Of a stretch of 64,000 nt of DNA, positions 19,901 to 64,000 are shown piece after piece. Under the pieces are notes generated by a model. It was not told where the DNA came from and did not search any database. It saw only the letters and a list, made by a program, of their open reading frames with translations. The position numbers and the translations under genes are program-made. The first letter of the stretch is position 1. Each line of letters begins with the position of its first letter. This DNA comes from Lepidodermella squamata (lineage: Eukaryota; Animalia; Gastrotricha), in assembly GCA_047495785.1 (NCBI GenBank), contig JBLDXI010000029.1:3100001-3164000 (forward strand), written 5' to 3'.

Positions 19901-19926
19901 ATTGGCGACGCGAGAAAAACACCATC

Positions 19927-22900
19927 ATGAGTGACTTGGCCGCGATTTTGGAGCGTTTGACTACATTGACAGCTTCGCAGGCCGAGGCATTAGCCCAGCA
20001 TTCCGCTGCGCTCGACTTGTTGTCATCAAACAATGAAACCAAGGTTACAAAGGAATTTCCAGGGTTCGACCCGCAGTCCGAGATATGGGAAGATTATCAG
20101 GAACGGTTCGATAATTTTACGAAGGCCCACGCGAAATCGAAGACGAAAGCGGCCTATTTCCTGAGTTGCCAGTCAGAGGCGATTTTCAAGGAGATCAAAA
20201 CTTACCTTCAGCAACTGCCTTCCCCGAAAAAAGTGAACGATGCGACTTACGACGACATCACGGTCTTTATGCAGAAGCAGTACGACCCGAAGAAGTATGT
20301 CGTCCGCGAACGTCACAAGTTTTGGAATAATATTGGCAGAAAAGCGGGTGAGTCGATTCCTCAGCTGGTTGCCAGAATTCGCCAGGATGCGGCTACCTGT
20401 GGTTTTTCAAATATCACTAACCCCTTAGATGAAGCGTTGCGCACCCGTTTCATTTGCTCTGTCAAAAATGAAGCAGTCTTAAAGGCGATTTTCAAGATTT
20501 CTGATACTGATCTTTCATTTCAAAAGGCCATTGATGTCGCGCTTGAAGTGGAGGAGGCGGCGAAAGTTGCCAAGGAGACAGTTTCTGGCCCTCAATTGTC
20601 TTCTCAGTCAGTGCACAACGTGTCTTCGGATGGTCGTCGAGCTGGAGTCAAGAATAAGAACAAACGTCTGTTCAACAAGGGTCGAAGTTCGAAATTTCAA
20701 TCGTCGAATCGCGAATCTTGCCGGGCGTGCGGCAAATTCGATCATCATCGAAATACTTGCAAGTTCAAAAATGCTGAGTGCCATTTTTGTCACAAACTAG
20801 GTCATATTCAAGCGGCTTGTCTCAGTCGTCAAAGGGCTGATCGACAAACATCGTCTGTTCCTCAACCCGTCAATGCTATTCGTGCTCAGGGTGGCCGCTC
20901 TCTTCAGGTGATCGATCGCGAATCGAACTCGAGTGACGCTATTTTTCAATCGTTTTTAGTGTCCAATCGGTTAGTCCAGCTCGAAATTGACTGTGGCTGT
21001 GGGGTAAATTTCATTTCGACCGAGGTTTGGAAACAAGTCGGTTCTCCTGCTCTTCATCCCTGCAGCACTCGATTCGTCAGTGCGTCGAATCACCCGATTC
21101 CTGTTTCGGGCACAGTCGTCTTACCGGTCTGCATTTCCGGTCAGCAAAATGTTTCGGACGTTTTGTTTCATGTTTCTGCTCATCTTAATTTGCTTGGCCG
21201 TAGTGGAATTCTTCAAATAAATTTGTCTATTGATCAGTTGCTGGGAATAACATCTGGTTCTACTTCAACTCGTCAGTTTGTTTCAAAGATTTTTGATAAC
21301 ATTAAGCCGGATTCGGAACTACAAAAGGCCTGCCGCGATCTTTGCAATGAATTTCCGGAGTTTTTCAAACCTGAACTCGGTTGTTTGCGCGATTTTGAGC
21401 TTGAGGTTAAATTTAAGCCCGAGTCGGTGCCGGTTTTCTGCAAGGCTCGACCGGTTCCGTTTGCTCTTGAACAGGACCTGGTGGATGCCTACGACGCCGG
21501 GGTGGCTAAAGGAGTTTGGGAACGGGTTCAATTCAATGACTGGGGTACGCCGGTTGTTCCTATTTAAAAACCGTTGCTTCCTGGCGAGACTAAACGGAAG
21601 TTACGAGTTTGCGGCGATTATTCGGCTTCGATTAATTCTCAGCTTGAACCTCATCGTTATCCACTACCTCTTCCAGCTGATTTGATGCGGAAATTACGTG
21701 GCGGCTATGGCTATAGTCAGATCGATTTGGCCGATGCCTACAACCAGATTTGCTTGGGTCCAGTGTCCCAAAAACGGCTGGCTCTTTCAACTCACAAAGG
21801 GGTTCTTCTTCAAAAACGATTACCTTTTGGAATTACTTCAGCGCCGGGCTATTTTCAAGAAATCATGGATAAATTGACCAGCGATTTGCCTGGTGTTGCT
21901 TGTTTTCTCGATAACATTTTTGTGTCTGGGATCGATGCCGCGGATCATCTATCGAATCTACGTAGGGCTTTGAAGCGCCTGGTTGATAATGGTTTGCGTG
22001 GTCGATTGGAAAAATGCGATTTTGCCATGCCGGTCATCGCCTGTTTGGGACATTTTTTGTCATCTGAAGGTTTGGCAATTGGACCTAAGGTTGATGCGGT
22101 TTTGGCAATGTCTGCTCCGTCGGATGTGGGTACGTTGAAGTCATTTTTGGGGCATGTTCAGTTTTATGCAAAATTTCTTCCACCGAACTTGTCCTCCATT
22201 CTTGAACCGCTTTATCGTCTGCTGAAACTCTCTGAACCGTGGTCATGGGGTGAGTCTCAGCAAGCAGCTTTTGAACGGGTCAAGTGTCTATTGTCATCGG
22301 ATGCGGTTCTGGTTCATTTTGACCCGAGTAAGACTCTGGGTTTGGCTGCCGATGCTTCAGAAGTTGGGATTGGGGCCGTTTTGTTTCATCGATTTGAAGA
22401 TGGTTCGGAACGACCAATCGCCAATGTTTCGAAATTACTCAACAGCAGTCAGCGTCGTTATAGTCAGATTCAACGTGAAGCTCTGGCTATCATCTTTGGA
22501 TTGAAAAAGTTTCATCAATTCGTCTACGGTCGTCATTTCATCATTGTCACTGATCATAAACCTCTGTTGTCGCTTTTTGGCTTCGACAAAGCGACGCCGG
22601 CTATGGCGGCTAATCGTCTAGCCCGTTGGTCCTGGATTCTTCATCAGTATGACTACGACATCGAGTACCGAGCGACTGCCAAGCACGGAAATGCTGATGC
22701 CCTGAGTCGATTGCCTGGGTCGCCTGACAATAATTTTGATGGGGAGGAAAGTGCTGATGATGTTCAAATGGTTTGCCAGGTCAACTTGATTAGTCAGCAA
22801 TTAAATGCTATCAACTCGACTGGCCACGACCCATTGGTTTTGGTTCGTGAGTCGGAGAAAGATCCAGTGATTTCTTCGGTTATTCGCTTTGTGGAAAATG

Positions 22901-24057
22901 GCTGGGCGGAGAAGCTTAACGAGTCGAAGTTGCAAGAAGTCAAGGAATTTAAAAAGTTGTCAGATTTCCTATCAGTTTCGGGCAAATGTCTTTTCTATGG
23001 CTCTCGAGTTGTTATTCCGACTTCTTTACGTAGTCACGTGCTTGGAATTTTACATCTGGGTCACATCGGAATCAGGCGAATGAAACAACTGGCTCGAAGC
23101 GCTGTTTATTGGCCTGGAATTGACGCAGAAATTACCGAAACGGGTCAAAATTGTGTCTCATGTGGTGAGCATCAGAATTTGCCGGTTAAGGCGGCTGTTC
23201 ATCCGTGGATGTTGCCGGAAGTTCCGTGGAGCCGACTGCATGTTGATCATGCGATCAATTTTCTGAAAACGAATTGGTTGGTTGTAGTCGACGTTTATTC
23301 GAAATACCCATGTATTCACCCTACGAGTTCGGTGTCTACAAAATCAACGACAGATCTGCTTGACGGCGATTTCGCTCATTTCGGATTTCCTCACGCGGTG
23401 GTCACCGACAATTCAACCACTTTCACATCGGAGGAGTTCCAGGAGTGGTGCGAGGAGAAGGGCATTGTTCATCTATCTGGAGCACCTTATCATCCCGAAA
23501 CCAACGGTCAGGCGGAAAGAATGGTAGAAACGTTCAAACAGAGTATGAAGAAATCGAGCTTGGTTCCGAAAACTGCTCTGAACGAATTTCTCATCACTTA
23601 CCGTCGTACACCGCTGCCGAATGGTCATTCACCCAGCGAACTGTTGAATGGCAGACAAATTCGCACAAAAATCGATCTGTTGGTTCCATCACCGTTGCAG
23701 TTCGAACTGATGCGTCTCAATCGACGAACAAAGGGGCGAGCATCTGCGGAAATCAACTTTAAAGTCGGTGATCGGGTGTTTGCTCTGTACCATGGTCAGG
23801 TCCGTGACCGAGAACCAAAATGGTATTTGGCTGAGGTTCTGAAGGTCGAAGGCCCACGTACCTGTGAAGTTAAGGTTTTGCCCGACGGCCCTATTTGGCG
23901 TCGACACTCAGATCAGCTGAGACCGTTCAAGGGTCCACCCGATGTTGTGTCTTCACAAAGACCGCCGGTGGCGGAACCCGATTCGTCATCAAGCCCGATT
24001 GCGATATTTACTCGCGACAATCCTCGCCGCTCAGGTCGTTTGCAAGCGAAGTCTTAG
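19927..24057 (+). pseudogene. Gypsy gag-pol in a single frame with one in-frame TAA (21565-21567)
   Basis: Two CCHC knuckles, protease EIDCG, RT LRVCGDY / LPFG / FLDN, RNase H ADAS...YSQIQRE...TDHKPL, integrase HHCC plus D-D-E. Confidence 0.93.
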
Positions 24058-24096
24058 GTTTTCGAATGCCGGTACATTCTCAGCCAGCGGTGAAGG

Positions 24097-24374
24097 TGTT
24101 GGGTTCTTGCCAAAATGATCGTGAGAAGTGACACATAAAAATGACCTAATTAATAACCTCATTTCTCAGGCTCTACTTACAGCATCATAACTACTAACCG
24201 TTGCAACTAACATTTAGAGAAACCAAATTTGTATTCGAAATCGGATTTACTGTGCCAAATCATACTTACCAAATTGCTTATTAATTCCACTAATTCGCGA
24301 TTTACTAATTAGGGGTTTATATGAATAAAATTTCATTTTGAAGTTTAATCGACTTTTGTGATCGAGTCTCAACA
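24097..24374 (+). repeat. 3' LTR
   Basis: Direct repeat of the 5' LTR, followed by TSD CCAGG. Confidence 0.97.
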
Positions 24375-27300: not shown

Positions 27301-28477
27301 CCATTATTGGCACGCCTTTGTCCCCCGGGCATAGTTGTATACCAGTTCTCTTCTTCTATAACGGCAGTGCTACTGTTTGCATGTGAATACGGAAAGAGGA
27401 AAACGGGCTAAGAGCCGCGAAAAAAGATTGGATCAATTCTACCCTGAATGTGATGCTTGGTGCAGAAAAGTTTGAAAAATCCCAGATTTCAACGGTGTGT
27501 CTGTACGTGCAACAGCGATTTTGCGCAAAAGACGTACCACAAAAACACTTTCAAAAAAATGTTTGCAAAAACGAATTTTCCTCAATGAAAATAACATAGC
27601 AGTAGTCATGGTATAGTAATAGTAGCATTAGTAGTTAGTAGTATAAAGTATAAATCAAAATCCTGTTACTACTATATCATTTTTATAAGAGATAACGTGA
27701 CTGCGTTATATTCGTTATATGTTATTTTCATTGAGGATTGGAACTTGCTACAAACATCTCGTTTGTGCAATGTCTTTTGTGCAAGTACCAAGTAAATCAT
27801 TACAACATATAAGGATTTTCTCCGAAGATTCATTCGAGCTCATGGCCGAAATATTTTTCTTCTTAATATTCAATCTTCGCTTAATATTTTTGTTTAATTG
27901 TGTTAATGTATGCATTTTGATCTCCCCTATAAGTGGACAGTCTCTTCGGAAACATCCGCCCAGACCAAGATAATTCTATTTGATGCCGAGGAATTTTCGA
28001 TCTGAAATGCGCTATAATTAACGGCCACTAACCAAATTCAAATGTTCACACAAAAAGTAATAATCCTGTGAAGTTAAATTATCGCAAATGAAAGCTGGAG
28101 TGTGTTGTTTGTCTGTCAGAACCACCTGGAGTTTTTTACATGTCACATGATTGATAGCGCATTTTTTTCGCCCCAGAAGACGAAAGTCTATACATCATTA
28201 ACATAGTTCGTATTCATTCGAATAATCACGCGCGTAACCTTGCATCGATTTCTTGTTATTTGCTTTCACTGATATATTTCGATGAAGATTCAAAATACCT
28301 CGACAGCTTTAAATCGTTAAAGATTCCCCGTCTCAACATCACAGTTCTTAGAACCTTCGGAAGTTTCATAACGAATAAGGTAGTTGATGCGAAGTGCTTC
28401 TGACAAAAAGGCGGCACAGATATAAATTCCCGTCGAAATCGCGCTTCGGGAATAACAGTCTTCTTGAATCTTTTTCT

Positions 28478-29747
28478 ATGGCTTACTTTACTCTGACGAT
28501 TCTCGCTGCCGCCTGTGCTGCTGTTACAGCCTGCCCAGCTTCGACAACTACGACTCCGTGCCCAACTGGCTCCACTTGCTCATCGGGTCAAAGCTGTCTG
28601 AACACGGCCAACCCATGCTCCACTGGCTCTGCCTGCCAAACAACAGCAAACACCTGCGACGCCTCAACTAACAATTGCGTCGCTAAAACTGCCGATCAGT
28701 GCGCAACAAGTGGCCAGACGTGCCAGACTTCTACGGTAATTTTATGAGCATTTTGGATCGAAGTTGATCGGGTACTCAATTTCATAGCCAGCCCCATAAT
28801 CCACTATTTGCGCAACCATTTTCGATTACACGATTTTATTCGGGAAAAATAAGCTATTTCCAAAATAAACCTCCAAATAAACGCAAAAAACCCGGTGTAC
28901 ATTATCCAGCCGAAACCGATGCATCAAGTTTGAAATTTTCACCCGTACACTTTGAAGCCAGTTTTCTCAGCAACCATGAGCCGGCCTTCAAAGTGGTAAC
29001 GAAATCTCATAATGTCAGGCGTTTCGCCAAACCCCGCTTTTCACTTGAAGCTCATTTACTTTTAATTTAGAGGGATCGTGCCCGTTTTGAGTATTTTTTA
29101 TCAGTATTTACCTCGACCCTCCTCTATCGTGAAATATCTAGGCTTAATGTGCAATTTTTTTCCGCGCAGTCCTCATTCATTCAATGCAACATCGCAAGTA
29201 CCCAGGTCTCCGGTTCTGCTGCCCAGACCGATATAAAGTTTTGCATGTCAAACGGAGGAGCTTGCAACTCAATTTTGACCACAGCTGCGGCCGCTTCTCC
29301 TCCCGCTAGCTTCACGACTTTCGATTTGTGCTGCGCATCCACGACCGCAACACCTGCCAACATCAGATACGAATTGCTGCCCCAAACACCCCCTGCTTCC
29401 CCTGTGCAGGTGTGCGTCGGCGCTGCAACTAGCACTCCATACATTGTCACCAGTCCTTCTACTGATTCCGCTGGTGGCATGTGCGTCCGCTTCCCGCACA
29501 CCGCTGCTCAAAGCAGAGATCAATTGATCTCTGCTACTCTGGTGAGTTACTCTCGAAATACTACAGTTTTTGATTAAATTATGGTACCGTATTGTTACAG
29601 GCTACGAAAAATCGCGTCTACGCCTTCGCATCTTTCCACGCTTGTTGTCTTGCACTTGGCAATGCTCCGGGTGCTCAGTCGGTTGGCACAGTCGCAGCTT
29701 ATGGCTTTGCTTCCTTTGACAGATGCTTTGGAACCAACATTAGCTAA
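28478..29747 (+). CDS. Cys/Thr/Ala-rich secreted protein, family copy B; exons 28478-28735, 29170-29541, 29601-29747
   Basis: MAYFTLTILAAACAAVTACPAS; motifs IKFCM, TFDLCC, YELLPQ, CVGAA, CVRFP, SFHACC. Lacks the intron 2 seen in copies A, C, D and E. Confidence 0.85.
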
Positions 29748-30566
29748 AAGGCGTAGCAAGAAAGTAGCAACGCCTCACTGAAAAGAATAATCAACTGATT
29801 GATGTCATCAAATATCTGATAATGCGTATTCATCATCGCTTGTATTGATGCAGTTGCATAGATGAATAAATGCAGTTGATCGGACACGTTAGCACATGTA
29901 TGTGTGCCGAGATGCCTTGTCACAATTTATTTGCTTTCTTGATCGCGTGACCGAAGAAATCACTCGATTAGGGTAATAATCTGTGTACGTGAAAAGTGAG
30001 CATCTATCAACCTAAAAGGCATGGCTTCATAACAGCATAATCACGAAACAGCGAAATCTTTATAACGTTTTATAGTTTCAAACCAAGAAATAAGTGAGGG
30101 TTTATTACTGGCGAGGTACAATTGTAGGCTGTGGTAATATTTATTGGAATCTATCGTCATGAGATAAAAAATTAACTTGAAAAAGAGTTGAGAATGAAAC
30201 AACAGTCAAATGTCCCTTTCGAAGAGATCGTTTTCCTTTTTTCAATTCTTCCAGCCACATTCTTTGACGAGGTTTCAGCCTCGACGCTTTCGGGATTGCT
30301 TTCCACATAAGAGGAGAGTGTGCGATGAAAAAGTTCCAAATGAAAAAATGAAACATGTTTTGGGTTGTTCTTGGTTGGAAATGATGACAAGTCATCTCAA
30401 CTAACAGGCATTTATACTCGACAAATCAGATTTGAGCTTCGCATCAATTTAATTGAATGTTTGCTAAAACTAACTCGGAAATGCAATTAGTAATTTTCAG
30501 TCATGTGACAAGTGCAAACTATTTATTAAGAAACCAAGACACTAATTTAGACCTGAGATATTATTA

Positions 30567-30962
30567 CCGTACTGCCCGAAAATAATGCCAGCCTCGAATA
30601 AATGGCAGCCTCAAATAAATGTCAGAGGTTAGAGGTCGTTCGAAAGAATAAATGTCAGGCCCGAAATAAATGTCAGGTCAGTGGCGGGGACAATACTGAA
30701 GATCCCTAAAGAGGTATTTTAGCCATTTTGATTGGATATAATTTCTACTCTTGGCACTTAGAAAGGTCAGGGACCAATTTTTTGGGTAAACATACGTAGA
30801 ATCTCAGGGAAATGTATGCCATTTTGGTTATCTAGGCAATTACTTGTTTGTTCGGATAATTAAATGTCAGGCCCGAAATAAATGTCAGTCTCTTTTAAAT
30901 GTCAGAGGTTCATCAACGTTTGAAAAAAATAAGTGTCATGGTTTTTGTTCCGGGCAGTACGG
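30567..30962. mobile_element. Tc1/mariner-pogo-type MITE
   Basis: TIR CCGTACTGCCCG / CGGGCAGTACGG flanked by TA on both sides, with repeated internal AATAAATGTCAG subterminal motifs. Confidence 0.85.
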
Positions 30963-31074
30963 TAGTTCAATCATCGCAGGTAATTCGACGATCCAGACTC
31001 AAAATAAGACCAGCCAAAATGCTGTTAGACCATCAATTTTCCGGCTTCTCAAAACACTCCTCAAAACACTCACC

Positions 31075-32429
31075 ATGGCTGTTCTTGCCGCTGCTTGCAG
31101 CTCCGTTATCGCCTGCCCTCCGTCCACAACGACCACGCCGTGCCAGACCGTTTCCTCCGTTTGCTCTTCTGGTCAATCGTGTACTGCCGCTTCGTCTTCG
31201 TCTGGGGTAGCATCCACCCCGGAACTCAATGCCAAGGCACCCAGGCGTGCTCCACGGCGGTAATATCCATTCGCTAAATTATTGCCGTAATTTTATTTCC
31301 AAATTTAATGACACATCAAACCTTCCAATTGTGCACTGGCTCGACTTTCGGTACACCCATCTCTAAGACTGTCAAGCTATGCGTTTCTAACGGCCTGGCT
31401 TGCAGCGCCACTTTCGGCCCTAGCTCATTCACGGTAAGCAAGAGTATAGCCAATTCAAAGCAATAAATACCTTAAGTTGTGCTCAGCAAACCACTGCAAC
31501 TCCAACTGCCCCGAACACCTTCACATCATTTCCAGACTGTTGCGCCGCCGCAGCTCCAGCGGCGCCGAATGCCGCCAACATTCGCTACGACATCTTGCCG
31601 GGCCTCACAGCTGACGTAGCTCCAGCTCTGGCCTGCATCGGAACAGCGGATTCTACCCATTCAAGGTCACAGCTGCTACAGCCGACTCTAGTACAAAAAC
31701 TGCTAGCTGCGTTCGCTTCCCGCACACGTCCGTTGGTTCCACTAGTGTTGTTGCTACAGGAAGTGGAGTGGTAAGTTCCCATGTGATTCACCGTATTGAT
31801 CAATACCTAAAGATTTATTGTCATTGATAATTGTCATAACAGCCCACAGCTGGCTCAGTCGTGGTCTACACTTCGTACTTGGACTGCTGTCTCGGTCTAG
31901 GACAGCGCTTCTCAAACGGTGGGTGGTCGCGGGCCCTATTTCCGGGGGTCGCCGAGCCAGCTCGGGGTCGCGGGGGTCGCGCGATGATTCTGATAAAACT
32001 GAAAAACTACGACGATTTGATCAATTTTATGATCACTCTTGCAGAAATTTCTTCAAAAATAGCGTCAGCTAAAGCTCGCTTCGCTCGCATCCCACAATAT
32101 TTTGCTAAATACCGACCGAAAATGCAGCTAAGAACCTAATTAATGTAAAAGTTTCAAGAAATTTTCCGAAAAATGGATGCGAATTGGGTAATATTTTATT
32201 ACATTTACGTATTATTTCGGAATTTGCGGGACCTTTTCCTACACCCAAAAAGCCATAAAAAACTGAACAAAATCGATAGGGGTCACAGCCTGGTCAGAAT
32301 GTCCATTTTGGGGTCGCCAAGGGTCGGGTGTTGAGTAGCCCTGGAGCTCCCTTCAACAATGTTGTGAGGGTCGGGTTTACAAACGCCTATGGCCTCAGGT
32401 TGGAGCAATGCGAAGCCACCGCGCCGTAA
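31075..32429 (+). pseudogene. Cys-rich family copy C, pseudogene
   Basis: Homologous exons (TTTTPC, VKLCVSNG, SFPDCC, YDILP, CVRFP, YGLRLEQC) are present. There are frameshifts in exons 1 and 3, no AG acceptor before exon 2, and a MITE in the last exon. Confidence 0.75.
31903..32343. mobile_element. hAT (Charlie-like) MITE inserted in the last exon of copy C
   Basis: Ends CAGCGCTTCTCAAAC and (reverse complement) CAGGGCTACTCAACAC, inserted after GTCTAGGA. The exon resumes afterwards; the right TSD is degraded. Confidence 0.75.
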
Positions 32430-32999
32430 TAAAATTCAAACTGGAATGCATTCGTTGGTGTAGAGAAATCGAATGGTCGATTCGAGCTCATTTCCGCAGA
32501 AAATTATTGGTACACTTAGAAACCCATGAAACCCTCGAAAAATAATCCGGATCATTTCCCGCCAAGAACAAGCTAAAACATGTTTCATTTTTTTCATTTG
32601 GAACTTTTTCATCGCACACTCTCCTCTTATGTGGAAAGCAATCCCGAAAGCGTCGAGGCTGAAACCTCGTCAAAGAATGTGGCTGGAAGAATTGAAAAAA
32701 GGAAAACGATCTCTTCGAAGGGGACATTTGACTGTTGTTTCATTTTCAACTCTTTTTCAAGTTAATCTTAATCTCATGACGATAGATTCAAATAAATATT
32801 ACCACAGCCTACAATTGTACCTCGCATGTAATAAACCCTCACTTATTTCTTGGTTTGAAACTATAAAACGGTTTATGGATTTCGCTGTTTCGCCGCAATT
32901 GCTGTTTCGTGATTATGCTGTTATGAAGCCGTGCCTTTTAGGTTGATAGATGATCACTTTTCGCAGATTCACCCCTTGGACCTTCGAACAATCAAGGAG

Positions 33000-37443: not shown

Positions 37444-39643
37444 TAATAATGAAAAAGATTAGACCGTTCCTAATTTACCCGAATCAGATCACAGTGAGTG
37501 AAACCTAGGTCGCCTGTAAGGGCGTAAAACCAGGGTTTTCCTGTCCGAGTATTTTGCTGCACGTAAAGACCACACCGAACCAGATTGCGAATAGATTCGA
37601 TCTGTTCCTTGAACAACAGTTTTCGATCGAGAATAAAGCCGTGCATGTCTCAAGTTGTAAGTTTCAAACTCGCTTGAATGGCGCGAATGTGATGTTTAAT
37701 CGGCTTAATACTCTCCTCAGAATCTTATCAACGCTTAAACAGAGGTGAACAAGGGCAATTCATAGTACTTTTGGCTTGAGAATTGTAGTGTTGTATTCAT
37801 TTTAATAAATATTGGGCAGTGCCGAAAAAATGGCAGGTCTGAATTATAAGGCAAGGGCTGCGGGTTGATTTATAAAATAAAATGACAAAGCAGAGCCTTC
37901 TGAATCGGTATAATAAGTTAGATCGGCTTGCAAACACGTTGTAGCAAAATCAAAGTGAATTGCGCCACGTGCAATTGTGCGAAGTTCAAATTTTTGAATC
38001 GAACGAACCTCGACATGGTATCACTTGTGAAAGAGCCGGTTGAGGCTTAGGCTGCAACAGTACCATGATGCGAATTTTTCCTGCGACTTTTGGGGAATTA
38101 ATTTCTAGTTTAATCTTTAATGATGGCAAAACGCCTTTTTCGCCGTGTTCTTGTCTGTTCAATATTTGCTAGTTTTTTTATGGTCGAAAAAATAAAGCCA
38201 GAAAAGCTAGCCGCCGTGTCAAATTTTACAAAAATAATATATAAACCATTTAGGCGCATCCACTGCTACCTAGAGTCATCACATGACGGCTCTTTAGCGT
38301 GAGATAATAAGCCGCATCAATTTCATATTAAGCACTATATACCTATCTGTCAACTGTTCTATACAGCTATTCAATATAACTTCTGGGCAAAGTAATTAGT
38401 TTATTTGGCAGTAAATAAAAAATACTAAGAAAAAAATATACAATGGAGAAATATGGCCAATCTCTTAACCGGCCAACCACTCTGAGCAGCCATGTATTTT
38501 TGTTTAGTGAAGAAATAATCTAAATAATGAAAAAGATTAGAAAAAACAATAAATACAGCAATTTGAGTTCATTCGATAATAGGAACATTAAATAATGGGT
38601 CCTCCTTTCATACCGGAACCAGATCACAGTGAGCGGAACCTAGGTCACCTGAAAATGGGCCTAAACCACTTTTCGGAACTTTCAAAGTAGCCATGGCTGA
38701 CCAAGATAGTTCTAAAAAAATTGCCATTGAATTCTGCGTAACTTTTAGAATCTTTGCGAGTATTACAAGTTTGGTTCTGTGACATGCAAATTTTGTTCCG
38801 CTAAACGTAACTTTGGTTCCGGTCATCAGATCATATGCGCGAAAAGAACAAGAACAGCAAAGAGAAAAACGAGATGAGAGCTTGGAAATAATGATTGAAC
38901 ACTTACTTCCAATGTAATGGTTGGCGCAGAAGATATATAAGAAAAATAAGAGAATTCAAAATTAAAGGATAACCTTCAAAGATTCATTCGAGATGGCATT
39001 AAACACACGGTGGACGGTGGACGAAAATTGATTTCTGGTTGATTATTTCTCCCTGTGGGTTTATGAATTTTGAAGAATCCTCCTAAAAGTGAACAAATCT
39101 ATCCGGAAACGTCGGTCTTGGGTCAACATTAGAGGCCCAGGAATTCTCCATTTCAAATTTGCGGCCAATAACTAGCGTTTTGTACTTATGGTTGAAATGT
39201 TCACGTCTAAAGCAACAATCCTGTGAAGTTAAATATCGCAAATGGAAGATAGAATGAGCTTTTTGTCCGAACTAGTTGGGGCATGTGACGTAGATATCCA
39301 AGTCACATGATTTGGAGTTTTTTACACGTTTCATAGTGCATTTTTTGCCCCATAAGACGAACATCTACATCATTAACAGCTTTCGTATTCATTCGAATAA
39401 TTAAGCGCCTAATCTTCTGTGGATTTCTTATTTTTTACATAGAATTACGTCTTTCGATCAAAATTCAAGAAACATCGCCAGCCTTTAAGCATTTACGATT
39501 CTCGTCCCGATGTTTAAGTTTGTAGGGCCTTTGGAAATTTCAGAGCGAATTATGGTGGTTCATGCGAAGTATGTCTGACGCAATGCGGTGCAGATATAAA
39601 TTCCCGTCAAAATAAGGCTTTATAAGTCGATTCATCTTTCCCA

Positions 39644-40797
39644 ATGGCGTACCTTACCCTGACGATTCTTGCTGCCGCCTGTGCTGCTGTCACAGCCTGC
39701 CCACCATCGACGACTACAACCCCGTGCCCAACGAGTGCTTCCGCCTGCCCGTCTGGACAAAGCTGCTTGACCGCGTCCACCCAATGCCCCACTGGCTCTG
39801 CCTGCCAAACGACTGCTGATACATGCAGCTCAGCATACAACAATTGCGTCGCTAAAACGGCCAATCAGTGCGCAACAAATGACCAGACTTGCCAGTCTGC
39901 GGTAATTTTATTTGCGATTTTGTTGGAAGTTGATCGGGTACTCCACATCATGCTAGTTTCATAATTTGCGCACCCATTTCTCGAGTTTTCGATTTTATTC
40001 GGGAAAAATTATCTTTTTCCAACCTCCAACCTCCAAATTTGCGCCTCCTCCTACTTGCCTCCTACTTGCCAGTCTGGGGATAGCTGCCTGAACACGGCCT
40101 TATCGGCGATATGATCGAAAACTTTCTCGACTATTATATTGAATTTCCCTCTATAGGCTAGCTACCAATTGTGCACAATGACGACACAAGGGACTGGTAG
40201 TGAACTAGCTCAAACCGTCAAATTTTGCCACAACGTCGCCGGAGCTTCGTGTACGGCTTATCTGACAGTAACACCTCCTGCTGCGGTAATTGTTTCACTA
40301 ACTCATCGAAACCCAATATCGATTTTTGTGGCTGTAGGCTTCCGCCGACACGCCAAACAGCTTCACCACATTTGCTGCGTGCTGCGCAGCCACGCAGACA
40401 CCTGCTAACGCTGCCTTCATCAAGTACGAAGTCCTGCCACAGCCGGCGAGAAATGCTCCTGGCATTTTTACCTGCATCGGCGCAACTGACGCGACTCCTT
40501 ACAAAATTACTGGCGCGACTGCTGGAGCAACGGCTGGCGATTGCGTTCGCTTCCCCAACACGGCTAGCTCTGCTAGTAACGTGGTTCTAACTAGCGGTTT
40601 GGTGAGAGCAGGCGTTTTGTTGCTGATCTAAGGTATAATTATTGATTTTACAGACCCTATCCGGATCGATGACATATAGCATGTCTACATTCGCGGCTTG
40701 CTGCTTTTATCTCGGCACCGCAGCCGTCAGATATACTCCTAGCATAGCCTCCGCATACGGCTTATTATTGGAAAGATGCGCCGCCTCCAATACATAA
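39644..40797 (+). CDS. Cys/Thr/Ala-rich secreted protein, family copy D; exons 39644-39901, 40157-40285, 40338-40601, 40654-40797
   Basis: Open spliced frame. Exon 1 resembles copy B; exons 2-4 resemble copy A. Confidence 0.85.
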
Positions 40798-41276
40798 TAT
40801 AAGGAATTGAATGATTTCCTTATATTGGCAAATCATCGATGAGTACAATTGACCATTGAGCTGCTTAATTTCACACAGTGACGCTAAAATGTCTTCTCAA
40901 GAAACAACCTAACAATGGAAACTTGTAATTTATGCGGCAAATCGGGCTCATTTATCACTTTATGCCCTCATTTACTAAATCATCTATACACACCAAAAAG
41001 CAGTTTTCTGGGCCGCTCAATTGTTCTACCTTGAGATGCATTTCTAGCGCTACTATACAGTGAAATATATATTTTGAATTCGACTGAATAGATGAATAAA
41101 CTCGATCAGTAATGGTGAATTCATATATCGACTGTTTCCACCGTGTTGAAGAGCTGCGAAGAGGCGATCACGTGTGTTACGGCTACCTATGTAAAAGGGA
41201 TTCACCAATTGCGTGAAGTGAAACTGGAAAATTACTTGAATTAAAAAGAGCCTAGTACAGGCGACAGACGTTCAGT

Positions 41277-43015: not shown

Positions 43016-44396
43016 TCAGGAAGCATATTTTTCCTGAAGGGCCTTTAGGGCTGAATTCAAGGCATAACAGGCTTCGTCAGTTCCGTAATTAATCGCGCAA
43101 GTCATCGCAAGATTTTTCATAGGAGCAACCCATGTCGTCAAACACCAAATCGTATTTGAACCAGTGTGCGAAAGAACATTGCCATCCGCCCAATTTTCCT
43201 TGCCAACAATCCAACCAGCAGCGTAATTTCCTGTCGGAGTCTGCAGTCGCTTCAAAGTTTCGGATGCCAGGATTTGGGTGTCCACACCCCTGCCGCCATC
43301 AAGATGGATTTGAAGGAACTTGCCGTAATCTTCCAGCGAACAATGAACAGTACCAGCCGGGCCAATCGAGGGTGGGTTGTCGGACTGAGGGTTGCTCGGG
43401 GATACTGGAATTGGACCTCTGCCACGGCTTTTTTCATGACCCCAGGGTTGGTCGATTAAATTCGACGTTCCAGGAGCTCCAAAGCCGCAGCTTGACATTT
43501 TTAATGGCGTAAAAAGGTGCTCATTGATGATATTTTCCCAGGTATCGTTCGCAGACCTCTCCAGAACAGCACCAACTAACATGTAGCCAGCGTTTGAGTA
43601 AATGAATTTCGTACCGGGCCTGAAAATGTAACATGGTATAAGCAAGTTCCTTCGAGATTCCCACAATTAAACTAAAACAGTGAAAATGTAGTGAAAATCG
43701 GTTGAAACAGGAGAATTACCGACAAATACCGAACTATCGGGTTTTCGGGATTTTCAGGATTCTCATCGATTTTTAGCAGATTCCCCCATCTTTGGGCCTT
43801 CAATCTTCCAAGGAAGAGGTTCTTAAACATTGATTGGCGTTCTCTTTAGCTATGGTAACTTAGGGTAATAGAGCGACCCAACATAATCCTTACGCATAGA
43901 CCGGCCTCAGTTTCAGTAATGATCGAACAGCCGTTATTCTAGCAGTTCTTGATTTGCCATCTTGCCACATTTTCTTCCAAATTTGTGCCGGGACATCCCC
44001 AGGCAATCCACCCCGGTGCTGCAACAACTGTTCGAGGGTTGTATCCTGTAATTCTGGATGAATCTGCTCACCGTGTAGTAGCCTCCCAAGCGGGTCTTCA
44101 AAGCGAAGCAAGCCCAGCTCGACAAAAATTCCGACCAGTGTCGCTGTCATAGCTTTCGCATTCGAGCCCAAGTGCCACTTGTCGGATTGTTGAACCCGAA
44201 TTGAGCTGCCATTTTTCCGAACGCCGGTAGCGCCAATGCCGATGGTCACTCCATCTTTGAGTACAGAGCAACAAAATCCAGGTGCCTTACTTGCCTGGCG
44301 GTAGGGTTCGATTAGGGAGGATAAATCGTCTTGAGCTGCTACTAAGTTGAGGGCAAACAAAGCAGTTATTACCCCTGCTCTGACGAAGAGAGCCAT
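43016..44396 (-). CDS. Secreted beta-lactamase/PBP-fold serine hydrolase; exons 44396-43894 and 43619-43016
   Basis: Signal peptide, SxxK (GSNAK), LLQHRGG, YxN (FIYSNAGY), GPAG and HTGSN. A 274-nt GT-AG intron (43620-43893) joins PVYA/PGTKF in frame. Confidence 0.92.
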
Positions 44397-54365: not shown

Positions 54366-55187
54366 TGAATCTATGGAAACTATGTTGGGAAATGCAAGAA
54401 AAGAGAAAACAATTTAAGAGGGCGAGAAAAGGAATTACTGTCTTGTCGATTGGAATTCATAGAAGTAGAAATATAGTATGTAATAGATTACCATTAACTG
54501 CCGCTAGTTTGCTTTGCAGTTTATTTAACATTGAAAGAGTTGTCTCGTCACTTGGGCATGCAGTGCCTGGTTTGTTTTCGAAAAAAGTCTTTAACAGTAG
54601 TCAGTATAGGATACGTATAGTATATATTATACTCTATTACTACTGATATTCTGGACTCTTGAGCTTCAGACCATTCTAGACCACTTGAACCGAGCAAGTC
54701 GAAATTTGAATTCCCAAGCAAAGGTTTTTAAGGAGTTCGTAGCGCATGAGAAGGTTTACGAAAAAGTATGATAGAAATACTATAACTAATGAAAAGTTGG
54801 GGATTGCTATGGGAAATAACATTTCGTTGAGAGACTGGGAACATTGGTATGGTATTTTAATAGCGAATACTTAGATTTAGAATAATCGACAATTTATGAT
54901 TCAAATTTGGGGAGACCTTCGCAATCTCAGGATGTGATGAGTCACCTTTCTCTTTCCCGTCGAGGATCCCTAACTTGGTTTAAATCTTCTCTGCCTTGTG
55001 AAGATTTCGGCTGATAATTCATTATAATTCAAATTGTGTGTTATTTTTCTGCTCGATACCTAACTTTATGTCTGTAATGAGAAGATATTTCAAATAAATG
55101 CGAAAAATATGTTGCCTATCAATCTTTTATTGACAAATGAATTAACGAAAATGAAAGCTTTAACTTCTCAATATTAAGCAGCTCTGT

Positions 55188-58088: not shown

Positions 58089-59761
58089 ATGAAAGTTAAA
58101 TTTACCTGAACCTTACACTTTTTCCCTTCAATGACTTCAAATGCCTTGCAATGTATGTTCCAAATTCCAAATAGATCCGTCCTTCTTAGCCTGACCTCAA
58201 ATAAAGAGCGATCTCAAATATAAGACGGGGCTTTGACTCGGGTAGAAAAGAAGAACAGGCCCAACAATTCAGGCAGTACGATATATTTTATTCATAGCGT
58301 TATTCCACAGTTAGAGTATGCATTTTATTTCTTATTCGAATACATAGCGCAGCCTGTTTTTCCTACAAAGGTGGGATTTATTTTACGCAAATTTTTGTTA
58401 ATCAAGTCGCTGTTAATTCTTAAAAATAATGTTATCTCATCAAAATAGTTATCGGAAAAATAAAATAAGAGTAACGCGACCTTGACTAGCCGTTGCCATG
58501 GTAACGGGCGACGCCGCCGTAAAAATTTCTCGTTTTCGAGGTTCAACCAGCAACCCAAGGTCTGAACTCGGGTTTTGATGCATTTTAATGCCGATTTTTC
58601 TTTGCAGCAGTCGGAGATGTGCTTATTCTACCTGCTTGACACTTCAACCCAGGTTACTGAAGGTTCTAAAATGGAACTAGCAGGTTCCAGCGATGTATTA
58701 CAAACGTCCGATTTCGTGATTGCGGGTTACGAATTCTTCGATTTTCGATGCTTATAATTTTTCGTAAGTATTTAATTGCTCTTGGCTAATTTTCGATGAT
58801 TTATACCGCTGCAACCTTGAAATCGTCGCTGAAGCTATGAATTTAGCATGATGGGCGGCGGTTTTCCTATAATTTAACATTACCTCTATTTTTCTCTTAT
58901 GACCACAATTTTCATAAAATCGAAAACTTTGATAGCACATCTATTTAATAGTTTCGTGAGGTTATCAGTTACTTATTTTACGCTACGAATTCCTGCAACT
59001 ATTGGACGCGAAGTTGATGACTAAGTAAGTTTTCTGTCTTTATTGCAATAGACAGTCTACAAATAATAAATTAATTTAAATTATCACGTTCTTTCGAGCC
59101 AGAAATCTAAAACTTGATAATAAGATGTCTTTTAACTAAGCAAGTTGTCTACTAGTTAGAATAACCAAAAAATAATCATCAAAATGTCTTTTTTAAGAGG
59201 ATATTTCAAAGTAGAAAAAGTCTAGAAATTGGCGGCTTTTCAAGAAGAAAACATGATAGCGTGAATGAGCATCATCACTAGTACTAGTTAGTGATGTTTA
59301 TTCAAGAATTCCGAAACTTTGCCAAAAAATTCCGAAGTGAGGGTCGAGAGCTCGAAATTGAATTTTTTAGTGGAAAGCCAGAAAGCCAGAAAAGTCACTT
59401 TGAGCTCGCTAATCCCTCAGAGTGAATCACAGTAGAAGGAATTCCACGCTTCTGGCCTGTCCAGAAGCTTAGAACCCCTACTACTGTTAAGGTGGATATA
59501 GATGACCTGATAATCCGAATTAAATTAAATTGAAATTCAAGTGGCACAGCGTAAATGGGCGGACAAGGACCCAAGCCCTCCGCCCTAACGGATCATTTTT
59601 GGGGTTGAATCTGCCTGCTCTGATGATGATCCTGTGATCTGTCTCGAAATGGCGGTGTTTAGATCAATTTTTCTCTTTAAGCGAAAAATTCTGCTAAAGC
59701 AAAAGTTCTCTCAAAGCGATATTGCTCTTGAACCGAAAGTGGAACGACAGATTCATACATC

Positions 59762-60239
59762 TTATTTTATTGCAATGTAAAGAAGGGTCAAACAGAGTGA
59801 TAGCGCTGGTTTGATCATACTGCTACGAGGGCCGCCGTTCTTTTTGCTTGCCCAACTAGGACCGCAGTCCAAAGTTTCGGTGTTGCAAAAGTCAGCACAA
59901 CACTGGCAATAAGTTCCGGAACCATTCATTGTCAAATTAAGATAACTGACTCCCGAAGAGCAAGGCGGACTGTTCTTGTCAACGCAAGTGTATTGAACGA
60001 AGCCTGCGTTGCCTCCTTCGAACGAATAGGCCACTTTCTAATAAAGGGAAGATGAACAATTTCAAGCATGATGCAGCCATACATACCACACATTGAATGC
60101 AGCCGGTGGATGATCCTATCCCTGCCTGCTGCGTTCCTGTCAATGTTGAGTAGTAGCTCCCCTTAAAGTTTTGGAATCCCTGATAGCAGTTCAAAGCATG
60201 AATGATGGGCAACTGAGTGAGAATAAGAAATAACAGCAT
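59762..60239 (-). CDS. Ly6/uPAR/quiver-like three-finger protein, probably GPI-anchored; intron about 60038-60086
   Basis: Signal peptide followed by LNCYQG, C..C, terminal CCADFCN motif and a hydrophobic C-terminal tail. Confidence 0.78.
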
Positions 60240-60406
60240 TTTTGCAGTTGAACGTAGACTGATAATAAACAGATGGCATAACGCTGTGGCTTGATGCGTC
60301 GTTGCCTGGCTACAGTCTCCCAGTCGCTATGGGGAAAATCGATTTGCAGCTGCTCTCACCACGAACGCCGTCAGTGCGATAGCTTGGTACATTTATTGTC
60401 GTTGAC

Positions 60407-60981
60407 ATGATCCCATCGATTCTATATTTTCTAACATCTCTCAATGCGGTCTTTTGTAAGTTATTAACAGCATCAGTTTTTCTGCTGACAGAATCAGTTG
60501 CATAGGCTTGTCATGCTACTCATATAGCAGTGTCAGTCCCGGGAGCACACTCGGAATAGCAAAAAGCGAGTGCGATGCTTGCTGGGCTTTTCAAAGTGTT
60601 ACGACCGACTGTGACACCACATCAGCCACGAGAGTTGACCTTTTCATGCAATGTGCATGTCGAGCTGGATCCACTACCTGTACAGGTGTGAGACTCAAAC
60701 AAGATCAGTTTTGTGGATTCCAAAACTTGACGACAAATACGTGCTGGGGAGCTGTGAAGGAATGCGTTTGTTGCTCAAATAAATGCAATCATGAGGATTT
60801 CTGTATTCCACCAACCGATAAAAAGTTTTACCTTCTTACGACACCTCAAAGCGATACTACGTCACAGTCCAGTCGACGTAACAGCTCTAACGCTTTGAAA
60901 TTCAGATTCGTCGCCGCAATAATTCCAGCTATGATCCTGATCTCTCTTCATTCAAATTCAATTAAACAAATAATTTCCTGA
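60407..60981 (+). CDS. Ly6/uPAR/quiver-like three-finger protein, probably GPI-anchored; intron 60456-60505
   Basis: MIPSILYFLTSLNAVFC/LSCYSY, CDAC, CCSNKCN, Ser-rich linker and hydrophobic tail. Confidence 0.78.
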
Positions 60982-61029
60982 ATAGGTTTATTCTTGATAA
61001 AAGATTTCCGTCTCCATAAGCCTATTCAC

Positions 61030-61150
61030 AAAAGTTGAAAAAATAAAAAAGTTGAGACGCCAGTTGGAATCGAACCAGTTACTTTATTCGCACATGCAAC
61101 AACAAATTTGAAAAAATAAAAAACTTGTGACGCGAGATGGAGTCGAACCG
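61030..61150 (-). promoter_or_regulatory. Two ~73-bp-period repeats, each carrying a Pol III B-box and T-run on the minus strand
   Basis: GGAATCGAACC (61066-61076) and GGAGTCGAACC (61139-61149) are reverse complements of GGTTCGANTCC. Each is preceded by ttgaaaaaataaaaaa. Confidence 0.75.
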
Positions 61151-61191
61151 CATCCTTTATAAGCATTATAAGAAAGCGCATTTTTGTGTTA

Positions 61192-61515
61192 ACACCGTGG
61201 CGTAGTGGATAAAGTGTCTGCCCTAGCAGACAGGCCGTACCTAGGCCTTAAACGGGGAGTGATGCCGCTAACGTGTTTGCCCAGGCGGTTAAACTGAGCA
61301 ACGTCCTGGTACCGACGTAAAAAGGTCCCGTCCAAAGACGTAAAACTAAAACGACCTTGGTAGCGTCGAAAAACCTATCACGACATTTGTGAGGTCGTTA
61401 AAACTTCTATGTTAGGGAGATGAGCAACCAGTTCTCCACTGCGGTGAAAACTGCATGTTTTAAACTGGAAGGAAAGTCGTAGAAGACCTTCAGGCATCAC
61501 GGGGCGGAGACTTTT
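61192..61515 (+). ncRNA. Candidate structured ncRNA with tandem pseudoknot-like modules, possibly Pol III-transcribed
   Basis: A-box TGGCGTAGTGG (61198-61208), TATA-like tttataa/ttataa upstream, enclosing stem GTGATGCC/GGCATCAC, about 8 interleaved stem modules with TAAAC/AAAAC linkers, and T-runs at 61512-61515 and 61526-61530. Confidence 0.55.
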
Positions 61516-61576
61516 GCTTTCGCAATTTTTACTTACAGCATTATATAAAGTAATAAAAAGTATATAGGTTGGGCCT

Positions 61577-61658
61577 CGTCCCGTAGCTCAGTGGTTCACG
61601 CACTGGGCTTTCCGTTTTGAGGGTCGGGTTCGAGTCCACACTGAAACAGAGAATTTTT
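61577..61658 (+). ncRNA. tRNA-like Pol III gene (not a canonical tRNA)
   Basis: A-box TAGCTCAGTGG (61584-61594), B-box GGTTCGAGTCC (61627-61637), T5 at 61654-61658 and TATA-like sequence upstream. No acceptor-stem pairing. Confidence 0.6.
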
Positions 61659-61750
61659 CTTTCTTTTCTTCTCTTTCTTCTTCTTTCTCTTTCTCTTTCT
61701 TCTTCTTCTTTCTCTTTCTCTTTCTTCTTCTTTCTCTTCTTTTCTTTCTT
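61655..61750 (+). repeat. Polypyrimidine (CT/CTT) low-complexity tract
   Basis: About 95 nt consisting only of C and T. Confidence 0.9.
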
Positions 61751-61754
61751 TAGA

Positions 61755-62042
61755 TTAAAACTTTTGCTTTTTCATTATCCAACTTCCACGATCCGTACTT
61801 TCAATAATATGACTGCTCAGAAGCGAATTAGATTGTCGAATTTCGCCCACTTCACGAGAATTCAAACAGTAAAAGTCATTTATGATATTCAGTAATATAT
61901 TATTCTCCTCGGTGAAATCGAACACCCAGCCGTAGCAATTATCCATGTACATATCCAATTTCGATAAATAGAACTGAAGGCTTTTGAGTTCCTGAGGGCT
62001 TTTGGGGTACTTGATCATTTGCTCCATTTCAGCTATTTTCAC
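61755..62042 (-). CDS. Small hypothetical ORF downstream of PolB
   Basis: About 90-95 aa, co-oriented with PolB and starting 27 nt after its stop. No recognisable motif. Confidence 0.4.
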   Translation of the reverse strand: MKIAEMEQMIKYPKSPQELKSLQFYLSKLDMYMDNCYGWVFDFTEENNILLNIINDFYCLNSREVGEIRQSNSLLSSHIIESTDRGSWIMKKQKF

Positions 62043-62069
62043 CTTATCTTATAAGCCTCACTGCTTTAA

Positions 62070-64000
62070 CTAAAAGAGGGAATCGCTCCTTCTCATCAGC
62101 TGCATGAAATCAATCATGAAATGGCCGTGCGCGAAAGTGTTGATGCCATCATCACTGACCCATCGCTTATCATCATAGGGACACAGGGCAACCTTGGAAC
62201 TTTGCATCGTAACTAAGTTATGGGAGAATGATCGAATCTGATTGAAATTTATATTGACTACTTTCTTGTTCTTCACGCAATCCCTGTAATGGTCGAATGT
62301 CAGCTTCGACTTCACGCCCTGCCGCTTAACTCCCTTCGCCTTTTTTATTTCATCTTTTTCTGAGTACAAAATTGCATAGACCTTGGATCGTGCTCCGGCG
62401 AATTCTCGTATTACACGTCCCTTTGCTTCGTCTTTAAATACGCCGTTAGTTTTACAGTTGACAGTTGAGAATAGGAAGTGATCTTTAGGATAATCAGAGA
62501 AATCGAATAGGTTTTCGATGGGTTTCATGTCTGTGTAAACGTCTCCAGTTGTGATATGGTAGCACAACGAATCTGTGTCTGTGAAAAGAAGCTTAGCTTT
62601 GTCGCCGTACTTTCGTTTGATGACATTGTAGTGGAAGTCGTACATATGCACCTTGGACAAATCCAAAATGGCTGCTCCAACGATAATTGGTCGATCATAA
62701 AAGATCTCAGTTTTTGCCATTTCCACGCTGAACAGCTCGTCACTTATCTTCTTAGCGTCCTTGAATGTTGGTTTGTTTACGAGTTTCTGAAGCTTCTTAG
62801 GGCAAGTAACCAGTTTTAAGTCAATGCGATTCCGAACGTTCTCACAAGTTTTACCGAAAATGACGTTATTCATCAGTTTGAAAAACCCCTTCTCAAATTC
62901 ATTGCTAGCCTCTTTTCGCTTTCGAGTATTGAATGCGATATAGGGCTCGGCCCAATTGCTCTGTTTGAACTTCAAAGCTCGGTGCACCTTTTTCAGAACT
63001 AGACCATTATCAAGAGCTTGCTGTAGCGCGCGATAGTGCATGACGTAATGTTTCTTGTCGTTCAGGTTTTGTGTTAGCTTTTTCACCTTCGCCGGCCTGT
63101 TAAGTCCTAATTGCTTATGCAGATCTTGCATGTGAGGGCTCGGTTCGCAAAGAATATGCTCTGGACAGAACGGATAGTCATTATGTGAGTCATGAAGCCT
63201 TGCAGGATAGTCGATATCAACCTCCAGCATGTACCCGAATTCGTCTTGGTCCCCAAGTGACTTCACAAAATCTTTGGTGATTGTTTCAGGGCCAATCCAT
63301 TCGAAGTCTTTCTGCGGTAACCACTGGGTCATCGCGAAAGAATAAAGAGCGTTGGCGTCCCAATACATTATAAACGATTTCGGAGCATTTGCGTCATAGT
63401 CTGTCATACCCTCGTTATTAGCCTTCGCGTACCTCCCAGGAATAACAGCTATACCGCCTCTTATGCCTTTTTCAACGAATTCAAGCATCTCCTTATTATC
63501 AAAGAGATCCAGTTCAACACGTGTGTATTTCAACATCGCGTCCCAACTTAACCCAGGTGCACCTAAATAATGCGCCGGGTCCAGATCGTAATAGCTTTTG
63601 CAGGTGTCTCGAAAACTGTCAAAACAATCTGCTAACAAGAGAACATCTGTTTTCAAATACAGGTCGTGGTAGTCTTTCAGAGTTTTGCAATTCAGTTTTG
63701 ACCAAACGGCTTGTGCGTGTTCATAATCCTCGTCAGATATAGAAGTTATTTCGATTTTGTTATCATCAAGCGAACAAGAATTTAGTCTGCATGAGAAATG
63801 TGACTTATTCGGTAGCTGAGTTTCATTCAGTTTGTCGAGGCTATCTATATAATCGTACGGATACACTCCCTTACGAAGTAGCAGGGATCTTTGTTCAGTT
63901 GTGAACTTAGAAAGCTGTTCATCAAAATGAGCGAATCTCTTTCCCGATTTTTTCAGATTACTGACTATCTGGTCCAGGCTTTCACTCATAAACTGAAACG
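62070..64000 (-). CDS. polB: Protein-primed family B DNA polymerase (Polinton/adintovirus type), 5' part outside the window
   Basis: KGVYPYDY, YLKTDVLLLAD, IRGG, WDANALYSFAM, KLMNNVIFGK, FTDTDS, KAKGV and DDKR in an uninterrupted frame of at least 639 aa. Confidence 0.95.
   Translation of the reverse strand, partial: FQFMSESLDQIVSNLKKSGKRFAHFDEQLSKFTTEQRSLLLRKGVYPYDYIDSLDKLNETQLPNKSHFSCRLNSCSLDDNKIEITSISDEDYEHAQAVWSKLNCKTLKDYHDLYLKTDVLLLADCFDSFRDTCKSYYDLDPAHYLGAPGLSWDAMLKYTRVELDLFDNKEMLEFVEKGIRGGIAVIPGRYAKANNEGMTDYDANAPKSFIMYWDANALYSFAMTQWLPQKDFEWIGPETITKDFVKSLGDQDEFGYMLEVDIDYPARLHDSHNDYPFCPEHILCEPSPHMQDLHKQLGLNRPAKVKKLTQNLNDKKHYVMHYRALQQALDNGLVLKKVHRALKFKQSNWAEPYIAFNTRKRKEASNEFEKGFFKLMNNVIFGKTCENVRNRIDLKLVTCPKKLQKLVNKPTFKDAKKISDELFSVEMAKTEIFYDRPIIVGAAILDLSKVHMYDFHYNVIKRKYGDKAKLLFTDTDSLCYHITTGDVYTDMKPIENLFDFSDYPKDHFLFSTVNCKTNGVFKDEAKGRVIREFAGARSKVYAILYSEKDEIKKAKGVKRQGVKSKLTFDHYRDCVKNKKVVNINFNQIRSFSHNLVTMQSSKVALCPYDDKRWVSDDGINTFAHGHFMIDFMQLMRRSDSLF

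Follow-up and report, generated by a model that had tools for sequence, protein, structure and literature searches.

What kind of genetic element is the stretch of about 320 nt that adjoins the protein-primed PolB (pPolB) gene in the 64-kb window of DNA analysed here? Polintons are proposed relatives of adenoviruses, and a preliminary description had seen at 61192-61515 a Polinton-encoded non-coding RNA made of about eight small pseudoknots in tandem, possibly an analogue of the adenoviral VA RNAs. In this study, we re-examined the region and find that it starts with half a tRNA, which is followed by five modules whose letters have diverged from one another (Table 1). By sequence, these five modules fit the definition of an H-type pseudoknot, with two interleaved stems, a loop 1 of at least 1 nt, a loop 2 of 0-1 nt and an A-rich loop 3. 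The modules previously placed at 61265, 61301, 61352 and 61380 were recovered by our detector, which added a further one at 61232. However, the count of about eight does not hold. The proposed CAC/GTG module is a 3-bp stem without a loop 1, and both it and the CCAG/CTGG module fail the hairpin test described below, which leaves five modules and one truncated one. The truncated one, M4, lies like the CAC/GTG unit outside the classical H-type definition and looks like a partial duplicate. The 8-bp stem that had been proposed to enclose most of the array does exist and has a pair probability of 0.54 in the nested ensemble, but it uses C61265-C61266, which are also part of stem 1 of M2, and it is one of 12 helices of at least 8 bp in the unit. 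The longest uninterrupted helix in the unit has 10 bp, and no ATG-led open reading frame of at least 30 codons is present on its plus strand.

Table 1. Features of the array and its surroundings (window coordinates).
Feature	Position	Strand	Remarks
tRNA 3'-half remnant 1	61031..61087	-	B box 61066-61076, then T-run
tRNA 3'-half remnant 2	61104..61178	-	B box 61139-61149; divergent from array
TATA-like elements (two)	61156..61171	+	about 33 and 24 nt before predicted start; putative promoter elements
tRNA-Arg-like 5' half (head)	61191..61231	+	A box 61198-61208; D-arm remnant; anticodon arm reduced to hairpin with 4-nt loop
M1	61232..61256	+	stem 1 AGGCC/GGCCT; stem 2 CCT/GGG; linker TAAAC; stem 2 alone p 0.14
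Enclosing stem	61259..61500	+	GTGATGCC 61259-61266 / GGCATCAC 61493-61500; 6 bp if M2 forms
M2	61265..61301	+	stem 1 CCGC/GCGG; stem 2 of 7 bp with 1 mismatch; linker TTAAA; p 0.010
M3	61301..61330	+	stem 1 ACGTC/GACGT; stem 2 of 6 bp with 1 mismatch; linker AAAAA; p 0.033
M4	61329..61352	+	hairpin CGTC/GACG with 4-nt loop; two A-tracts; stem 2 impossible
M5	61352..61380	+	stem 1 CGAC/GTCG; stem 2 TGGTAG/CTATCA; p 0.007
M6	61380..61409	+	stem 1 ACGAC/GTCGT; stem 2 weak; p 0.33
3' domain	61404..61492	+	several competing hairpins; internal T4 61458-61461
Predicted Pol III terminators	61512..61530	+	T4 at 61512, T5 at 61526
Degenerate tRNA-like unit	61577..61658	+	A box 61584, B box 61627; internal T4 61615, T5 61654
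Pyrimidine microsatellite	61657..61750		
Small ORF, 90 aa	61755..62027	-	downstream of pPolB; homologue search empty
Spliced Ly6/uPAR-like gene	60408..60981	+	signal-peptide exon, short GT-AG intron; neighbour
Protein-primed PolB ORF, 3' part	62070..63998	-	open to window edge

The evidence that the modules are more than chance hairpins comes from their pairing statistics. A strict detector of H-type modules with A-rich linkers found three modules in 61192-61515; 600 dinucleotide shuffles gave at most two each, and the reverse strand of the same region gave none. A relaxed detector, which was tuned after the sequence had been seen, found five (61232, 61265, 61301, 61352 and 61380) against at most two in 1500 shuffles in which the A-tracts were held fixed. 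Over both strands of the window it found 26 modules, and more than two per 330-nt tile occurred in only three tiles of the plus strand and in none of the minus strand. The pattern exceeds all the shuffles as well as the remainder of the window. In order to avoid circularity, modules were also defined without stem 2; in this test, a hairpin of at least four Watson-Crick pairs stands directly before six of the 11 A-tracts, against at most four in 3000 A-tract-fixed shuffles, and five of these six hairpins have loops long enough for a second stem. When the stem 2 strands were permuted among modules, the assignment of each strand to its own partner ranked first of 120 permutations, both by energy and by pair count, and none of 5000 joint loop shuffles matched it. 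In a common register 27 of 33 stem 2 positions are paired (permutation mean 16.2); column 4 is a mismatch in four of the five modules while the remaining columns are paired in 26 of 28 cells, and the base pairs vary between modules, with two to four different pair types in each column. The innermost pair of stem 1 is C-G in all six hairpins. Taken individually, stem 2 is significant only in M2, M3 and M5 and not in M1 or M6. The earlier suggestion of selection on a repeated pseudoknot layout is thus backed by the own-partner pairing within the array together with the hairpin and A-tract test, and it is very probable that the fold of the array is under selection.

The energetics are less one-sided. 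The nested minimum free energy (MFE) of the unit is mildly unusual (z -1.9), and for the whole array a crude energy with all pseudoknots formed amounts to -79 to -91 kcal/mol against a nested MFE of -104, which favours nested folding under a model that applies a flat pseudoknot penalty and leaves out base triples, coaxial stacking and Mg. By the same crude energy, the predicted pseudoknots of M2, M3 and M5 each beat the best nested fold over their own span. Stem 1 of M2, M3, M5 and M6 has a probability of at most 0.05 in the global nested ensemble. Since the stems of the modules are similar, helices across modules are possible, and a 10-bp helix between M5 and M6 comes to -16.0, compared with about -9 to -12.5 for both modules. 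Folding during transcription would be expected to favour the local modules.

Several signals suggest how such an RNA could be made. The A box that had been reported at 61198 is present (TGGCGTAGTGG, 61198-61208), as is the TATA-like sequence before it (TATAA at 61158 and 61167), and the 5' end of the unit is predicted at about 61191. The head retains both strands of the anticodon stem, and M1 occupies the position of the T arm. The head is identical in 23 of 28 letters to an intron-bearing tRNA-Arg(TCT) called by ARAGORN in L110, the one viral contig that matched a degenerate pattern made from the head; the ambiguity letters of this pattern were taken from the tRNA consensus, so that this comparison is biased toward tRNA, and the Rfam tRNA model gave no match at the head. 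No B box is found inside 61191-61530. T-runs do follow the array as had been noted. For human Pol III, termination has been reported to reach 18-75 % at T4, depending on the cassette, and 74-95 % at T5 (PMC5725217), values that hold for the human enzyme. Transcripts of about 270, 325 or 340 nt could therefore arise, and each of these predicted lengths contains the five modules. The internal T4 at 61458-61461, which had been raised as a possible early stop, is present but matters little because all five supported modules lie 5' of it.

The missing B box may have been replaced from outside. The B-box motif GGTTCGANTCC occurs exactly three times in the 64 kb, where 0.08 occurrences are expected, at 61066 (minus strand), 61139 (minus strand) and 61627 (plus strand), and all three lie within 450 nt of the start of the unit. 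Two of them sit in duplicated tRNA 3'-half remnants that are 82 % identical to each other over 57 nt, and the third in a degenerate tRNA-like unit; ARAGORN and Rfam call no tRNA in any of these. Remnant 2, which has no A box upstream of it on the minus strand, aligns with the anticodon, the intron and the 3' half of the intron-bearing tRNA-Arg(TCT), so that it may descend from the same type of tRNA as the head, which is oriented the other way. Borrowing of boxes has a precedent in Leishmania, where a divergent tRNA-like sequence supplies those that drive the U2 snRNA (PMC4950102). The earlier proposal of a Pol III unit is backed by its tRNA-derived head and TATA elements as well as by the terminators and the three flanking B boxes, and on these sequence signals transcription of the array by Pol III appears likely.

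Whether the array belongs to a Polinton is a separate question. The window is animal DNA, as seen from its short introns, a ligand-gated channel gene and transposons. The ORF at 62070-63998, which we take to be a Polinton protein-primed PolB, has its best database matches at about 50 % identity, the named ones coming from corals and molluscs, and relatives 38-50 % identical in viral and metagenome contigs; Pfam gave no match on this fragment. In one sequencing run (X1), from which the window itself may derive, 0.73 of the sampled words are present. Twenty-one other runs stand at 0.05, and three of these together with one same-study run at 0.00 contained nothing on the locus; runs at these levels are no evidence for habitat or expression. 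Compared with the main X1 variant, pPolB shows 15 synonymous and 8 nonsynonymous differences, and 15 of 23 silent against an expected 20 % (p 4e-6) means that pPolB has been under purifying selection. Over 60388-61071 the X1 contigs have a depth of 713-730, and over most of pPolB one of 732-765, compared with 136-166 in paralogous X1 contigs; being depth and not copy number, these values are only a hint on Polinton membership. A gap at 61148-61652 in the X1 contigs, which hides any variation within the array, carries no weight since the records are filtered, and from the share of 0.73, set against about 564 of 1171 word starts in the covered flanks, it follows that X1 holds part of the unit.

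Maverick ends have been described as carrying (AGT)2 or (AG)3 motifs (PMC8097293). Such an element is expected to have terminal inverted repeats and a 6-bp target duplication. AGTAGT at 60149 falls inside a coding exon, and the plus strand has no other from 60155 to 62070. A 55-bp palindrome begins with the AGTAG at 59431. One X1 contig departs from the window at 59430, just before this AGTAG, and this departure, seen in a single contig with 22 loose letters, is a possible element junction. The palindrome itself (59431-59486) runs from AGTAG to ACTACT with very high X1 contig depth and is a candidate element end or else belongs to a small repeat family; loosely similar AGTAGT...ACTACT units are found at 27601-27673 and 54596-54644. 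No Polinton terminus enclosing the array could be located in the window, and the opposite end lies outside it, as would the integrase, ATPase, protease and capsid genes of a Polinton, which are to be expected past position 64000. To the left of the unit, a second Ly6/uPAR-like gene (about 59762-60240, minus strand) is divergent to that at 60408-60981 (plus strand), and both have signal peptides and hydrophobic tails. The best Atlas match of the plus-strand gene is a uPAR/Ly6 cluster at 0.90, just below the threshold for recognition. Among the listed sites, the Ly6-like genes differ from the main X1 variant by 9 silent and 11 replacement changes and are thus faster than pPolB. They are either cargo or host genes, and if inside the Polinton they would be intron-bearing cargo. 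A Polinton origin of the array, as previously suggested, is therefore plausible from the like depth on both sides but is not established, given the lack of a terminus and the Ly6-like genes of host type on the left; on balance we lean moderately towards the array lying inside a Polinton.

The wider window holds further elements. An LTR retrotransposon at 19620-24374, with two identical 281-nt repeats and reverse transcriptase, RNase H and integrase domains, is a recent insertion. At 29991-32962, some 2.2 kb are bracketed by long inverted repeats, which amount to about 600 nt in pieces and reach 98 % complementarity, and this is likely a DNA transposon; a Myb/SANT-like ORF beside a DDE-like ORF with in-frame stops (491-2399) may represent a Harbinger-like transposon. 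A beta-lactamase-family (PF00144) gene lies in two consecutive ORFs at 43016-44396 (minus strand) of this animal genome, a Cys/Thr-rich secreted-protein gene is present in three dispersed copies (17000-18500, 28000-28700 and 39200-40800), and three unrelated-looking ORFs for multi-pass membrane proteins (41670, 46158 and 56704) have no Pfam match. At 58492-58505 there is a perfect palindromic motif, GTTGCCATGGTAAC, which we assume to be an RFX X-box-like motif as is typical of ciliary gene promoters.

The preliminary description had pointed to related Polintons as a place to seek further copies of the array. We scanned 107 PolB-anchored loci (1 + 26 viral, and 80 of 571 confirmed metagenome stretches from 16 of 64 parts), with L002 and L003 left out, some loci being the same contig twice and many having little DNA past PolB. 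None of these distant loci has more than two modules per 330 nt, six reach two and four have one B box; blastn found no homologue of the array among them, and ARAGORN called no tRNA in the 26 viral ones. Against phages, blastn gave no match below E 0.3. The 18-nt head pattern matched twice in viral contigs, both times by chance and neither in a tRNA, and there were no matches to the gapped head pattern in metagenome contigs or to the degenerate head pattern in genome contigs. Within the 64-kb window there is no second copy of the unit. An Rfam search of the unit returned nothing at E up to 10, the VA RNA family included, and a search of 6 kb and three short stretches returned only chance matches of snoRNA, miRNA and similar types. 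As no homologue was found, the array is at best restricted to one lineage, and the evidence for covariation comes entirely from within it.

Known classes of RNA were also considered and rejected for the unit. An intact tRNA gene was dismissed, as ARAGORN found no genes in the 64-kb window, Rfam found none and the unit lacks a cloverleaf with an anticodon loop and a T arm. A likeness of M2 to SRP helix 8 is not accompanied by an Rfam match or an outer stem; a telomerase RNA would need a template, a frameshift signal an ORF and a miRNA precursor a long hairpin, and none of these is present. Hammerhead and HDV-like ribozymes and a preQ1-type riboswitch were rejected, with no hammerhead core or HDV-like loop on the plus strand and no match in Rfam. 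In the literature surveyed, which included few subscription papers, no non-coding RNA was described for Polintons or Mavericks. Judging from its sequence, the array is a real, uncatalogued structured element, apparently of the tRNA-derived Pol III RNA kind, at a single locus.

The explanation that we consider best, at a little short of an even chance, is that of a Pol III gene, probably carried by a Polinton, whose RNA of about 270-340 nt would stack H-type pseudoknots and, as a decoy or scaffold, engage one protein in several copies. Given the rest, such a role would be as probable as not. From the anatomy of the array, its pairing statistics, the tRNA likeness of its head and the B-box cluster, we infer the following course. 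The unit would have originated from a tRNA gene in which duplicated modules took the place of the T arm. Its own B box would then have been lost and TFIIIC sites borrowed from the flanking tRNA remnants, two inverted upstream and one downstream, while the A box and TATA elements would fix the start near 61191. The RNA would end at the T4 at 61458, the T4 at 61512 or the T5 at 61526, with five modules in each form. Each module would present the same surface, formed by the innermost C-G of stem 1, an A-rich strand over the minor groove and the mismatch at pair 4 of stem 2, and such a repeated identical surface would suit a repeated protein site. The likeliest ligand would be a host translation or RNA-surveillance factor.

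Features of this putative RNA are found, in other combinations, in several known systems. The TMERs of gammaherpesviruses are Pol III RNAs of viral origin that occur in clusters and join a structured body to a tRNA-like head. They carry a whole tRNA-like fold and pre-miRNA hairpins, whereas the array has half a tRNA and no long hairpin. In TMV the tRNA-like 3' end is aminoacylated. The TMV upstream pseudoknot domain (UPD) acts in cis within the 3' UTR of this plant RNA virus, in front of that tRNA-like end, and consists of three consecutive pseudoknots that bind eEF1A, structure and not sequence being what matters (PMC4683447). It shares with the fold predicted for the array consecutive small pseudoknots joined to a tRNA-like part; however, in the array this part is a 5' half placed in front, the array lies in a DNA element, there is no CCA end and no Rfam family matches. 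With VA RNA I the array has in common a location beside a protein-primed PolB gene, Pol III signals, a proposed tRNA origin and, if its modules fold as predicted, pseudoknot pairing with A-minor contacts (PMC6599070). VA RNA I, however, works through a 22-bp apical stem, carries a single ancillary pseudoknot of 3 bp and has its A and B boxes within the gene, whereas the array has five repeated H-type modules, B boxes outside the unit and a predicted transcript. As VA-I needs a continuous duplex of about 20 bp, which binds PKR (PMC6599070), and the longest helix here has 10 bp, the array is not a VA RNA and cannot work as VA-I does. The proposed analogy therefore holds for origin and polymerase but not for the duplex or an internal B box. 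In trypanosomatid snRNA promoters, as in the array, boxes lie in oppositely oriented tRNA-like sequence upstream of a Pol III RNA gene (PMC4950102), but there both A and B boxes are upstream, whereas here the A box is internal, the upstream boxes are B boxes only, and the promoter is a predicted one in an animal host. Finally, BocaSR is likewise a Pol III RNA from a non-coding end region of a small DNA virus; it differs in its length of 140 nt and in coming from a virus without its own polymerase, and its abstract does not mention repeated modules (PMC11194592).

Several other explanations have to be weighed against this reading. The same structured Pol III RNA might be encoded by the host, from a gene among the clustered tRNA remnants next to the Ly6-like genes, the Polinton having inserted or been truncated alongside. 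This would fit the two spliced genes of host type to the left of the unit, the presumed RFX X-box-like motif at 58492 as a sign of nearby host DNA, and the lack of AGTAGT on the plus strand between 60155 and 62070, and equal depth would also be expected if everything here were single-copy. However, the paralogous X1 contigs at 136-166 against about 730 for the block, the contig that leaves at 59430 and the absence of an intact tRNA gene from the window speak against a host gene, and we regard it as unlikely. Even less probable in our view is that the element works at the level of DNA, with a cluster of TFIIIC boxes serving as an insulator or Pol II barrier and the array being an old tandem repeat between them that forms nested hairpins or no fold at all. 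In its favour, exact B boxes stand in tRNA folds that have otherwise decayed, the energy model prefers nested folding and the MFE z-score is only -1.9. Decay, however, would not preserve the pairing of each loop with its own partner through changed pair types, nor a fixed geometry or the G-U wobbles seen on one strand.

A 3'-UTR element of the upstream Ly6-like mRNA, enhancing translation or stability like the tobamovirus UPD, is suggested by the position of the array on the same strand, 210 nt past the stop codon, and by the resemblance of its small edge-to-edge pseudoknots to the three consecutive ones of TMV (PMC4683447). Yet AATAAA at 61042 and 61115 precedes the array, which also has its own TATA, A box and T-runs, and this makes the idea improbable. 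The chance that the unit is a tRNA-derived SINE, or a SINE-like insertion with a repetitive body, seems slighter still; while its head is tRNA-derived and a microsatellite adjoins the tRNA-like unit that comes next downstream, it contains no B box, has no second copy in 64 kb and ends in T-runs and not in an A-tail. An RNA for the element's own replication or packaging, binding pPolB, a packaging ATPase or the terminus, can be likened to the packaging RNA of phage phi29 (pRNA). Such a role would agree with a position in non-coding DNA past the polymerase gene, and BocaSR is a precedent for a viral Pol III RNA with a part in DNA replication (PMC11194592). However, a core replication part should not be absent from 107 related PolB loci, and we give this role an equally small chance.

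If the array is, as we prefer to read it, the product of a Pol III gene carried by a Polinton, it might further be viewed as an invertebrate counterpart of VA RNA. It would be the first Polinton non-coding RNA gene to be described, encoding a tRNA-born Pol III RNA of stacked, diverged pseudoknots, with B boxes taken over from inverted halves of tRNAs, that relies on multivalent display and not on dsRNA mimicry; this wider view we put forward as a tentative one that is more doubtful than the reading on which it builds. VA RNAs have been proposed to originate from hijacked tRNAs, and a Pol III RNA in which half a tRNA is still recognizable would, if true, capture a moment of that process. Polinton activity could then be followed directly with such a marker, and the array would offer a naturally occurring series of one pseudoknot fold in which covariation is built in. 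Should the array prove to be a host gene, it would still represent an uncatalogued structured RNA architecture in an animal.
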